A DNA stretch of 64,000 bases from Escherichia coli. Lineage in GTDB: Bacteria; Pseudomonadota; Gammaproteobacteria; Enterobacterales; Enterobacteriaceae. Numbering within the stretch: the first letter of the stretch is position 1; each line of letters opens with the position of its first letter. Below are positions 10,237 to 53,871 of this stretch, in pieces. The notes beneath the pieces are model-generated. The model ran no database searches. It was not told where the DNA came from and saw nothing but the letters and a program-made list of their open reading frames with translations. The translations under genes and the position numbers were made by a program. Where the stretch lies: the NCBI RefSeq assembly GCF_050920415.1, contig NZ_CP169309.1. One strand, given 5' to 3'.

Positions 10237-10348
10237 CCCCGGCTAGACCGGGGTGCGCGAATACTGCGCCAACACCAGGGAAATCTTGGCTGCGCCGTAA
10301 ATTATTATGATGAGTTACAAGGGCACAGCACTGTTTTTCAGGCCGCAC
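10228..10348 (-). ncRNA. arcZ: ArcZ (SraH/RyhA) Hfq-dependent sRNA, convergent with arcB and overlapping its last codons
   Basis: Minus strand reads GUGCGGCCUGAAAAACAGUGCUGUGCCC...GCGCACCCCGGUCUAGCCGGGGUCAUUUUUU, matching my recollection of ArcZ (~121 nt); ends in a GC hairpin plus U-run that overlaps the arcB stop. Confidence 0.75.
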
Positions 10349-31817: not shown

Positions 31818-31893
31818 AATCTCGCGCTAACAACCTGGAATCGAGCCGTCATACTACGGCGCAACGCCCTATAAAGTAAACGATGACCCTTCG

Positions 31894-31921
31894 GGAACTT
31901 CAGGGTAAAATGACTATCAAA
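31894..31921 (+). promoter_or_regulatory. Candidate sigma-E promoter of greA
   Basis: GGAACTT-N16-TCAAA matches the sigma-E consensus, ~140 bp upstream of greA. Confidence 0.5.
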
Positions 31922-31936
31922 ATGTGAATTGTAGCT

Positions 31937-31971
31937 GACCTGGGACTTGTACCCGGGTCGGTATTTTTTTG
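31937..31971 (+). ncRNA. graL: greA leader hairpin and terminator (GraL sRNA region)
   Basis: gacctggg...acccgggtc stem followed by ggtattttttt within the greA 5' leader; consistent with the described GraL leader transcripts. Confidence 0.5.
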
Positions 31972-38621: not shown

Positions 38622-38708
38622 GCCGAGGTGGTGGAATTGGTAGACACGCTACCTTGAGGTGGTAGTGCCCAATAGGGCTTACGGGTTCAAGTCCCGTCCT
38701 CGGTACCA
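38622..38708 (+). tRNA. leuU: tRNA-Leu (anticodon GAG)
   Basis: 87-nt GCCGAGGUGGUGGAAUUGGUAGACACGCUACCUUGAGGUGG...GGUACCA with long variable arm and encoded CCA; 14 nt after the secG stop. Confidence 0.95.
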
Positions 38709-44616: not shown

Positions 44617-44693
<77 letters not shown>

Positions 44694-44815
44694 CTTTCCC
44701 TTAGAGTCCTTTTTCAAATATACTGTGAAGACTTCGGCCTTCGTAGTGGGATTTGAAAAAATCCTTCTGGAAAGTGCTCCAGACCGCAGTTGCGGTTATA
44801 GGGTTCAGTTATATA

Positions 44816-44840
44816 AAGCCCCGATTTATCGGGGTTTTTT
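44816..44840 (+). terminator. Rho-independent (partial) terminator between metY and rimP
   Basis: gccccgat-tt-atcggggt followed by TTTTTT. Confidence 0.8.
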
Positions 44841-44899
44841 GTTATCTGACTACAGAATAACTGGGCTTTAGGCCCTTTTTTTATGTCTTGGGGGTGGGC

Positions 44900-49564: not shown

Positions 49565-49581
49565 GGTTTTTAGGGTTCTAT

Positions 49582-49653
49582 GCGGGATAAGGCGTTTACG
49601 CCGCATCCGGCATGGATTGCCTGATGCGACGCTGGCGCGTCTTATCAGGCTAC
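49582..49653. repeat. Pair of REP (BIME-like) palindromic units in the infB-rbfA spacer
   Basis: gcgggataaggcgtttacgccgcatccggca and gcctgatgcgacgctggcgcgtcttatcaggc match the REP consensus. Confidence 0.7.
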
Positions 49654-51072: not shown

Positions 51073-51124
51073 TGTTAACCGTCTTGCGATAACAAGTCGC
51101 TACGAGTAGAATACTGCCGCTTAA

Positions 51125-51490
<366 letters not shown>

Positions 51491-51504
51491 TTCTTGCGAG
51501 TTTC

Positions 51505-51534
51505 AGAAAAGGGGCCTGAGTGGCCCCTTTTTTC
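51505..51534 (+). terminator. Rho-independent terminator of rpsO
   Basis: aaaaggggcc-tgagt-ggcccctttttt. Confidence 0.85.
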
Positions 51535-51735
51535 AAACTGACGGCAGCAATTCACTGGAAACTAATGTATTGTTGCTATGAATGATCTTCCGTTGCAGAG
51601 GTTCGCGCGGCTAATGAGAGGCTTTACCCACATTGGGCTGGGTTAGGGTTGTCATTAGTCGCGAGGATGCGCAGAAGATCGGGTATTAACACCAGTGCCG
51701 TAAGGTGCTGTCTAAGAAAGAGAAAGGATATTACA

Positions 51736-53871
51736 TTGCTTAATCCGATCGTTCGTAAATTCCAGTACGGCCAACACACCGTGACTCTGGAAACCGGCAT
51801 GATGGCTCGTCAGGCTACTGCCGCTGTTATGGTTAGCATGGATGACACCGCGGTATTCGTTACCGTTGTTGGTCAGAAAAAAGCCAAACCAGGTCAGGAC
51901 TTCTTCCCGCTGACCGTTAACTATCAGGAGCGTACCTACGCTGCTGGTCGTATCCCGGGTAGCTTCTTCCGTCGTGAAGGCCGCCCAAGCGAAGGTGAAA
52001 CGCTGATCGCGCGTCTGATTGACCGCCCTATTCGCCCGCTGTTCCCGGAAGGCTTCGTCAACGAAGTTCAGGTTATCGCCACCGTGGTTTCTGTTAACCC
52101 GCAGGTTAACCCGGATATCGTTGCGATGATTGGTGCTTCCGCAGCACTTTCTCTGTCTGGTATTCCGTTCAATGGTCCGATTGGTGCTGCCCGCGTAGGT
52201 TACATCAATGACCAGTACGTACTGAACCCGACTCAGGACGAGCTGAAAGAGAGCAAACTGGACCTGGTTGTTGCCGGTACAGAAGCTGCCGTGCTGATGG
52301 TTGAATCTGAAGCTGAACTGCTGAGCGAAGACCAGATGCTGGGCGCAGTGGTGTTCGGTCATGAACAACAGCAGGTTGTTATTCAGAACATCAATGAACT
52401 GGTGAAAGAAGCCGGTAAACCGCGTTGGGATTGGCAGCCGGAGCCGGTAAACGAAGCGCTGAACGCGCGCGTTGCTGCGCTGGCTGAAGCTCGTCTGAGC
52501 GATGCTTATCGCATCACCGACAAACAAGAGCGTTATGCGCAGGTTGATGTCATCAAATCTGAAACCATCGCGACGCTGCTTGCTGAAGACGAAACCCTGG
52601 ACGAAAACGAACTGGGTGAAATTCTGCACGCTATCGAGAAAAATGTTGTTCGTAGCCGCGTACTGGCAGGCGAACCGCGTATCGACGGTCGTGAAAAAGA
52701 TATGATCCGTGGTCTGGATGTGCGTACTGGCGTGCTGCCGCGTACTCACGGTTCTGCGTTGTTCACCCGTGGTGAAACGCAGGCACTGGTTACCGCAACG
52801 CTGGGTACTGCACGTGACGCACAGGTTCTTGATGAACTGATGGGCGAACGTACTGACACCTTCCTGTTCCACTACAACTTCCCTCCGTATTCCGTAGGTG
52901 AAACTGGCATGGTCGGTTCTCCGAAGCGTCGTGAAATTGGTCACGGTCGTCTGGCGAAGCGCGGCGTGCTGGCAGTAATGCCGGATATGGACAAATTCCC
53001 GTACACCGTACGTGTAGTGTCTGAAATTACCGAATCCAACGGTTCTTCTTCTATGGCTTCCGTGTGCGGTGCGTCTCTGGCGCTGATGGACGCAGGTGTG
53101 CCAATCAAAGCTGCTGTTGCGGGTATCGCAATGGGTCTGGTGAAAGAAGGCGACAACTACGTTGTACTGTCTGACATTTTGGGCGACGAAGATCACCTGG
53201 GCGATATGGACTTCAAAGTTGCGGGTTCCCGCGACGGTATCTCTGCACTGCAGATGGATATCAAAATTGAAGGTATCACCAAAGAGATCATGCAGGTTGC
53301 GCTGAATCAAGCTAAAGGTGCGCGTCTGCATATCCTGGGCGTCATGGAGCAGGCGATCAACGCGCCGCGTGGTGATATCTCTGAGTTTGCACCGCGTATC
53401 CATACCATCAAGATCAATCCGGACAAGATCAAAGACGTTATCGGTAAAGGCGGTTCTGTTATCCGTGCCCTGACCGAAGAAACTGGCACCACCATCGAAA
53501 TCGAAGATGACGGTACTGTGAAGATCGCAGCGACCGACGGCGAGAAAGCGAAACACGCTATTCGTCGTATCGAAGAAATCACCGCAGAAATCGAAGTGGG
53601 TCGCGTCTACAATGGTAAAGTGACCCGTATCGTTGACTTTGGCGCGTTTGTTGCCATCGGCGGCGGTAAAGAAGGTCTGGTCCACATCTCTCAAATCGCC
53701 GACAAGCGTGTTGAGAAAGTGACCGACTACCTGCAGATGGGTCAGGAAGTACCGGTGAAAGTTCTGGAAGTCGATCGCCAGGGCCGTATCCGTCTGAGCA
53801 TTAAAGAAGCGACTGAGCAGTCTCAACCTGCTGCAGCACCGGAAGCTCCGGCTGCTGAACAGGGCGAGTAA
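51736..53871 (+). CDS. pnp: Polynucleotide phosphorylase
   Basis: Start inferred at TTG 51736 ([21 protein letters not shown]...) giving 711 aa; two RNase PH domains, KH and S1 domains. Confidence 0.95.

Follow-up and report, generated by a model that had tools for sequence, protein, structure and literature searches.

How are the two strands of the short spacer between rpsO and pnp used in Escherichia coli, and on which of them does selection act? PNPase is a major RNA-degrading enzyme on which growth in the cold and virulence depend, and the rpsO-pnp spacer is a textbook case of a ribonuclease controlling its own mRNA via RNase III. In the window analyzed here, a stretch of 64,000 nucleotides, an initial annotation of this spacer had left the strand and the ends of the small RNA SraG undecided. 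We hold it to be nearly certain that the spacer is the rpsO-pnp control region, with a two-way terminator, an RNase III leader hairpin, a UUG start codon, and the antisense RNA SraG, working as published. This system has already been described in detail and no new biology is claimed; what is gained is a clean annotation in which SraG has a settled strand and settled ends and each element is placed in window coordinates (Table 1).

The sequence around the spacer is that of E. coli. The 801 bases from 51100 to 51900 had matches covering 80% or more of their length in 5,424 of the 5,426 complete E. coli genomes, several of the RefSeq matches having 100% identity, and all matches were annotated as rpsO and pnp. 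Locus, gene order, hairpin, Shine-Dalgarno sequence, UUG, and terminator are the same as in the rpsO-pnp region of E. coli K-12 studied by Portier, Regnier, Hajnsdorf, and colleagues, from which the spacer differs by four substitutions and one indel, none of them in the core helix of the leader hairpin. The substitutions lie at 51537, at 51634 and 51636 in the apical loop of hairpin R, and at 51707, where the window has a G-U pair and K-12 an A-U pair in the small hairpin downstream of R. The indel is in the left arm of the terminator, where the window has one G fewer; because of this extra G, the K-12 spacer is 246 bp long and that of the window (51491–51735) 245 bp. The initial annotation had spoken of a 245-bp leader. 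The length is correct but the term is not, as 245 bp is the whole intergenic spacer, with the terminator in its first 43 bp; the pnp leader 3′ of the terminator is ~200 nt long, or ~155–158 nt when counted from the promoter P2.

Table 1 Features of the rpsO-pnp region in window coordinates.
Feature	Position	Strand	Basis
rpsO CDS, ribosomal protein S15, 89 aa	51221–51490	+	ORF list; RefSeq annotation of 100%-identical matches; K-12 b3165
Bidirectional Rho-independent terminator (T1 for rpsO on +, T for SraG on −)	51507–51533	both	Sequence, fold, conservation
SraG primary transcript, 215 nt (K-12: 216)	51507–51721	−	K-12 b4449 transferred via alignment; circular RT-PCR in PMC5029454; Rfam
Tentative small hairpin (GGCAGCAAT.../...ATTGTTGCT)	51543–51577	+	MFE fold, between terminator and P2
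Probable P2 −10 hexamer TATTGT	51568–51573	+	GTATTGT block nearly invariant in 76 species among the loci listed
Leader hairpin R, RNase III substrate starting pnp mRNA decay and PNPase autoregulation	51584–51680	+	Fold; role from PMC5029454
12-bp core helix, CGCGGCTAATGA (51606–51617) with TCATTAGTCGCG (51652–51663)	51606–51663	+	Essentially invariant
Candidate upstream CsrA site, GGA in invariant GAGGATG, 3′ arm of R	51665–51667	+	Putative, from sequence
Small conserved hairpin CAGTGCC-GTAA-GGTGCTG	51693–51710	+	Fold, −9.9 kcal/mol; covariation
pnp Shine-Dalgarno AAGGA, 7 nt before UUG	51724–51728	+	Sequence; AAGGA conserved in alignment
Putative SraG promoter −10 hexamer TAATAT, between pnp Shine-Dalgarno and UUG	51733→51728	−	7 nt upstream of 51721
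pnp CDS, PNPase, 711 aa, start UUG 51736–51738	51736–53871	+	K-12 b3164 annotation; alignment

Other Rfam matches in the window fit this region of the E. coli chromosome, namely the ArcZ sRNA (10241–10348, minus strand), the greA leader (31848–31969, plus), the rimP leader (44782–44882, plus), and two tRNAs (38622–38705 and 44617–44690, both plus). Just upstream of the spacer, the S15 leader RF00114, the translational operator of rpsO, matched its pseudoknot region at 51163–51277 on the plus strand with 117.6 bits, and it was also matched in 14 of 15 other scanned loci, which are all those containing the region 5′ of rpsO. A naRNA4/CssrE match at 49581–49651 (75.6 bits on the plus strand, 39.2 on the minus strand) corresponds to a REP-type palindromic element. 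It presumably adjoins rbfA on the upstream side, if the position of rbfA is taken from the K-12 gene order.

A degenerate pattern of the first 12 pnp codons, in which ATG, GTG, or TTG was allowed as the start, was run against species-representative genomes and gave at least 120 Enterobacterales loci. Among the loci listed and the window (121 sequences), rpsO lay directly upstream of pnp in 116, two of the other five having too little upstream sequence to tell, and the spacers measured 201–535 nt. The predicted pairs of the window were then counted on the 76 listed spacers that aligned end to end, a pair position being one sequence at one pair. Standard pairs formed at 90.3% of the pair positions, against 41–50% when the 3′ partners were slid by 1–3 columns. 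Two-sided changes were found at 159 positions, against 69 ± 10 in column shuffles, none of 500 shuffles reaching 159, and compensatory changes affected 21 pairs overall.

The terminator that had been named after rpsO is present as a GC stem-loop followed by a U run. Its sequence, AAAA-GGGGCC-TGAGT-GGCCCC-TTTTTT, comprises a 6-bp GC stem and a 5-nt loop ahead of the TTTTTT. It folds at −19.3 kcal/mol on the plus strand and −17.4 kcal/mol on the minus strand, forms a stem at 51505–51533 in the minimum free energy (MFE) fold of the spacer, and pairs at 91% of its pair positions across the 76 listed species. On the minus strand it reads GGGGCC-ACUCA-GGCCCC-UUUU, and SraG has its 3′ end at this rpsO terminator, which has explicitly been termed bidirectional (Fontaine et al. 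2016, PMC5029454). Neither T1 nor P2 nor the SraG promoter was listed by a scan for sigma-70 promoter and terminator consensus sequences. On our assumption of how the scan behaves, T1 was probably missed because its stem extends into A/T runs, and we do not count the miss against the signals because two of them have been mapped experimentally and T1 is obvious by eye. The left arm of T1 (51511–51514) contains four Gs against five in K-12 MG1655, and the stem is therefore perfectly paired in this strain. The four-G form recurs in a further E. coli (strain E69, L072), and in the alignment E. albertii (L005) carries the extra G, as K-12 does.

The spacer and the first codons of pnp (51491–51760) fold with an MFE of −102.6 kcal/mol, against −75.2 ± 4.7 kcal/mol in 200 dinucleotide shuffles (z = −5.8), none of which was as stable. 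The leader is thus highly structured, as had been proposed, and the hairpin expected to be the RNase III substrate was found in it. This hairpin R is a long, imperfect structure of 37 pairs (−46.1 kcal/mol when folded alone) that lies downstream of P2 in the 5′ UTR of pnp and has the same stem sequence as in K-12. It is conserved in the 76 listed spacers, where 12 of the pairs in its three helices are invariant, 12 show two-sided changes, and 82–96% of the positions are paired. Within the 12-bp core, nine pairs never vary and three vary in one to four of these 76 species; the GAGGATG that follows the core helix is nearly invariant. Downstream of R, the small hairpin at 51693–51710 shows compensatory changes in all seven of its pairs in the same spacers. 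The hairpin predicted at 51543–51577 pairs at 83–95% of its positions in the 76 listed species, with a two-sided change in one pair only, and it would exist as plus-strand RNA only in read-through transcripts from the rpsO promoter P1, because it overlaps the DNA of P2.

We estimated the start of P2 at 51578–51581 by back-calculation from the transcript running from P2 to RNX1 (Fontaine et al. 2016), whose length is given inconsistently as 234 or 237 nt, an uncertainty of ±3 nt (PMC5029454). The start would be 51578 or 51581 depending on whether the 237 nt include an added GGG, and a range is given. The reported RNase III cuts lie at +39 and +77 from P2, one in each arm of R and 38 nt apart (PMC5029454), positions that fit the hairpin geometry only with a start at 51578. 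RNase III sites in the pnp leader are confirmed by Romero 2014, Stead 2011, and two reviews, which give no nucleotide positions, and the main text of the genome-wide RNase III map of Altuvia 2018 does not mention pnp. With a 38-nt spacing and a 2-nt 3′ overhang, the core helix accommodates solely cuts between 51616 and 51617 and between 51654 and 51655, and we predict cleavage near these positions as a geometric estimate. With such cuts, the processed 5′ end would precede the UUG by 81 nt, which we take to be the distance given in the older literature.

The UUG at 51736 proved to be the pnp start, as first annotated: the frame from it to 53871 encodes 711 aa, as does K-12 b3164, and among the at least 120 loci listed plus the window, TTG stood at this position in 119 of 121 sequences and GTG in two, though ATG was allowed by the pattern. 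Both GTG starts, the only two in the set, belong to Providencia (L041 and L045). A toe-print has been observed at +15 from the UUG (PMC5029454). We rejected a longer mechanical reading frame of 740 aa from the TTG at 51649, which begins inside hairpin R, has no Shine-Dalgarno sequence, and is further disfavored by indels between species upstream of 51736 that do not look like whole codons.

Two CsrA sites have been reported in the leader, one of them over the Shine-Dalgarno sequence (PMC5029454). From the 5′ end predicted to result from processing up to the UUG, only two GGA motifs occur, at 51665–51667 and 51726–51728, and to judge from the sequence these may be the two CsrA sites. The candidate at 51665–51667 would be exposed only once RNase III and PNPase have processed the RNA.

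The presence of SraG in the spacer was borne out by Rfam, and its orientation and ends could be settled as minus strand, 51721→51507. The SraG family RF00082 matched the minus strand from 51677 to 51506 over model positions 1–177 of 177, with 160.8 bits (gathering threshold 50; E = 3.7e−30). K-12 annotates sraG (b4449) as a 216-nt ncRNA opposite to rpsO and pnp, and circular RT-PCR has mapped its ends and moved the start upstream by 42 nt relative to the former annotation of 174 nt (Fontaine et al. 2016, PMC5029454). SraG is 215 nt long here because one terminator G is missing compared with K-12, and the Rfam match begins at 51677 because the model represents the old 174-nt form; the match covers the 3′ 172 nt of SraG. 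SraG lies between rpsO and pnp on the opposite strand here, in K-12, and in 15 of 15 other Enterobacterales among the loci listed, and its antisense overlap with the pnp leader stops 4 nt short of the Shine-Dalgarno core. The bases from 51708 to 51760 are identical to those of K-12, where the SraG start and −10 box have been mapped and mutated, so that SraG would have its own promoter here as well; a mutation of the −10 box abolishes SraG (PMC5029454). We saw no convincing −35 element for the SraG promoter. A coding role for SraG was dropped, no frame of more than ~37 codons being free of stops, and a mechanical 58-aa minus-strand ORF (51624–51800), whose start at 51800 precedes that of SraG, so that SraG does not contain it, was treated as a chance frame.

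Removal of SraG raises pnp mRNA and PNPase 1.3-fold, a 30S toe-print is lost with full-length SraG and kept with the short form, and SraG induces extra RNase III cuts in vitro (PMC5029454). The 5′ part of SraG that is absent from the short form is needed for repression (PMC5029454), and RF00082, which follows the earlier 174-nt annotation, omits 44 nt at the 5′ end of SraG here (42 nt if counted from the end annotated earlier).

Together, these elements would operate as follows. Transcripts from P1 would stop at T1 or read through into pnp, and P2 would make a pnp-only mRNA, so that both pnp mRNAs carry hairpin R, which would be cut by RNase III in both arms. PNPase would then remove the short 5′ strand still paired to the processed leader, which would expose the 5′ end to RNase E and uncover the GGA site. 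Binding of CsrA to the uncovered GGA and to the Shine-Dalgarno sequence would block translation from the weak UUG, and PNPase would in this way limit its own synthesis. From the opposite strand, SraG would be made from a promoter whose −10 box lies between the Shine-Dalgarno sequence and the UUG and would end at the same terminator in reverse; by pairing perfectly with the leader to within 4 nt of the Shine-Dalgarno core, it would block the 30S subunit, add RNase III cuts, and modestly lower pnp expression. Sequence features, fold stability, conservation, covariation, strand, and coordinates come from our analysis, and the cleavage, binding, and expression steps all come from the literature (mechanism: PMC5029454); we infer where P2 starts, where exactly RNase III cuts, and which GGA is the upstream CsrA site. 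We found no evidence contradicting the identification.

The closest known counterpart is SraG/PsrO of K-12 (RF00082; b4449; Argaman 2001, Fontaine 2016), with which the RNA of the window shares a full-length model match, the antisense position to the leader, and the end at the rpsO terminator; the promoter regions are identical and the RNAs differ in length by the single nucleotide given above. In Streptomyces coelicolor and others, a structure cut by RNase III also lies upstream of pnp in an rpsO-pnp operon, a likeness of arrangement. No antisense RNA of the SraG type has been reported outside the enterobacteria; RliD of Listeria and ref41 of Enterococcus are similarly placed but show no clear sequence similarity to SraG (PMC5029454).

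The two strands of the spacer do not fold equally well. Hairpin R reaches only −33.4 kcal/mol on the minus strand, a difference of 12.7 kcal/mol from the plus strand, and the small hairpin at 51693–51710 drops to −3.9 kcal/mol, because conserved G-U pairs of the sense strand become A-C mismatches on SraG. It seems, then, that the pnp leader is the main target of selection for pairing. RF00082 matched all 15 members of a diverse sample of the loci listed, which ranged from E. albertii to Arsenophonus, each time on the other strand from the S15 leader. Of 116 species, by contrast, only 36 keep TAATAT at the homologous position and 45 have a promoter-like hexamer there; in Klebsiella, Enterobacter, or Pantoea the hexamer reads TTCTAT or TCAAAG. 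As the −10 hexamer is kept in only 36–45 of 116 species, the regulatory weight of SraG is uncertain outside Escherichia and its close relatives. Since the leader hairpin and the Rfam match are far more widely conserved than TAATAT, much of the signal of the SraG model may be a mirror image of the leader and the terminator, SraG in E. coli itself staying experimentally established. The strand asymmetry and the patchy −10 hexamer are small additions beyond the literature we consulted.

These observations give some weight to the idea that the conservation detected by Rfam is mainly a by-product of selection on the sense pnp leader and the rpsO terminator, SraG being a minor, lineage-restricted element. 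We regard this as a serious possibility, though one that falls short of an even chance: the greater stability of both hairpins on the plus strand, the Rfam match in 15 of 15 diverse loci beside a patchy promoter, and the mere 1.3-fold shift of pnp upon SraG removal speak for it. However, SraG has been detected experimentally in E. coli, where it needs a promoter of its own, and it keeps the 30S subunit from binding in vitro; its −10 box is the site of an old autoregulation mutation (PMC5029454), and the promoter may sit elsewhere in other species. The idea concerns the evolutionary cause of the conservation and does not conflict with the control region working as published.

A related suggestion, which we offer only as a speculative and rather unlikely one, is that the invariant 12-bp core and the GAGGAUG reflect a sequence-specific reading of the stem beyond RNase III, by PNPase, S1, or CsrA, with repression by SraG as a recent add-on. 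Sequence-specific reading is suggested by the near invariance of the core and GAGGAUG in 76 species while the rest of R covaries freely, and the patchy −10 box suggests that SraG repression was added to an older leader mechanism in Escherichia and some relatives.

It is still less probable that SraG acts mainly in trans on other mRNAs, with Hfq or ProQ, and that its control of pnp is secondary. Yersinia pseudotuberculosis SraG reportedly regulates YPK_1206-1205 and changes 16 proteins, SraG binds Hfq with a sub-nanomolar Kd (PMC5029454), and it is listed among the ProQ-associated antisense RNAs. Nevertheless, no trans target was found in E. coli by microarrays, by target prediction, or by probing ten candidates on Northern blots, deletion of hfq left both the level of SraG and its effect on pnp unchanged, and the Yersinia targets lack homologues in other genera (PMC5029454). 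Finally, one could hold that the spacer is an ordinary one and its predicted structure due to chance. Nothing speaks for this view except that any long sequence shows some pairing in its MFE fold, and it is already refuted by the shuffled folds, the pairing and compensatory changes in 76 species, and decades of experimental work on the leader.

Beyond the elements shared with E. coli, some of the listed loci carry extra sequence in the spacer. A segment of ~65 nt between the rpsO stop codon and the terminator, absent from Escherichia, is found in Pantoea, Erwinia, Tatumella, and some other loci (L011, L031, L037, L040, L043, L048, L056–L058, L068, L079, L082, L084, L087, L094, L105, L108, L109, L113, L118, and L120) and has its own inverted repeat, e.g., GAATCTGATC...GATCAGATT. 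Larger insertions of ~100–155 nt occur in L059 (443 nt, including 45 nt of pnp), where the terminator region is interrupted, and in Kluyvera (L013) and Pseudocitrobacter (L022), both ~390 nt, where they lie between the terminator and P2.
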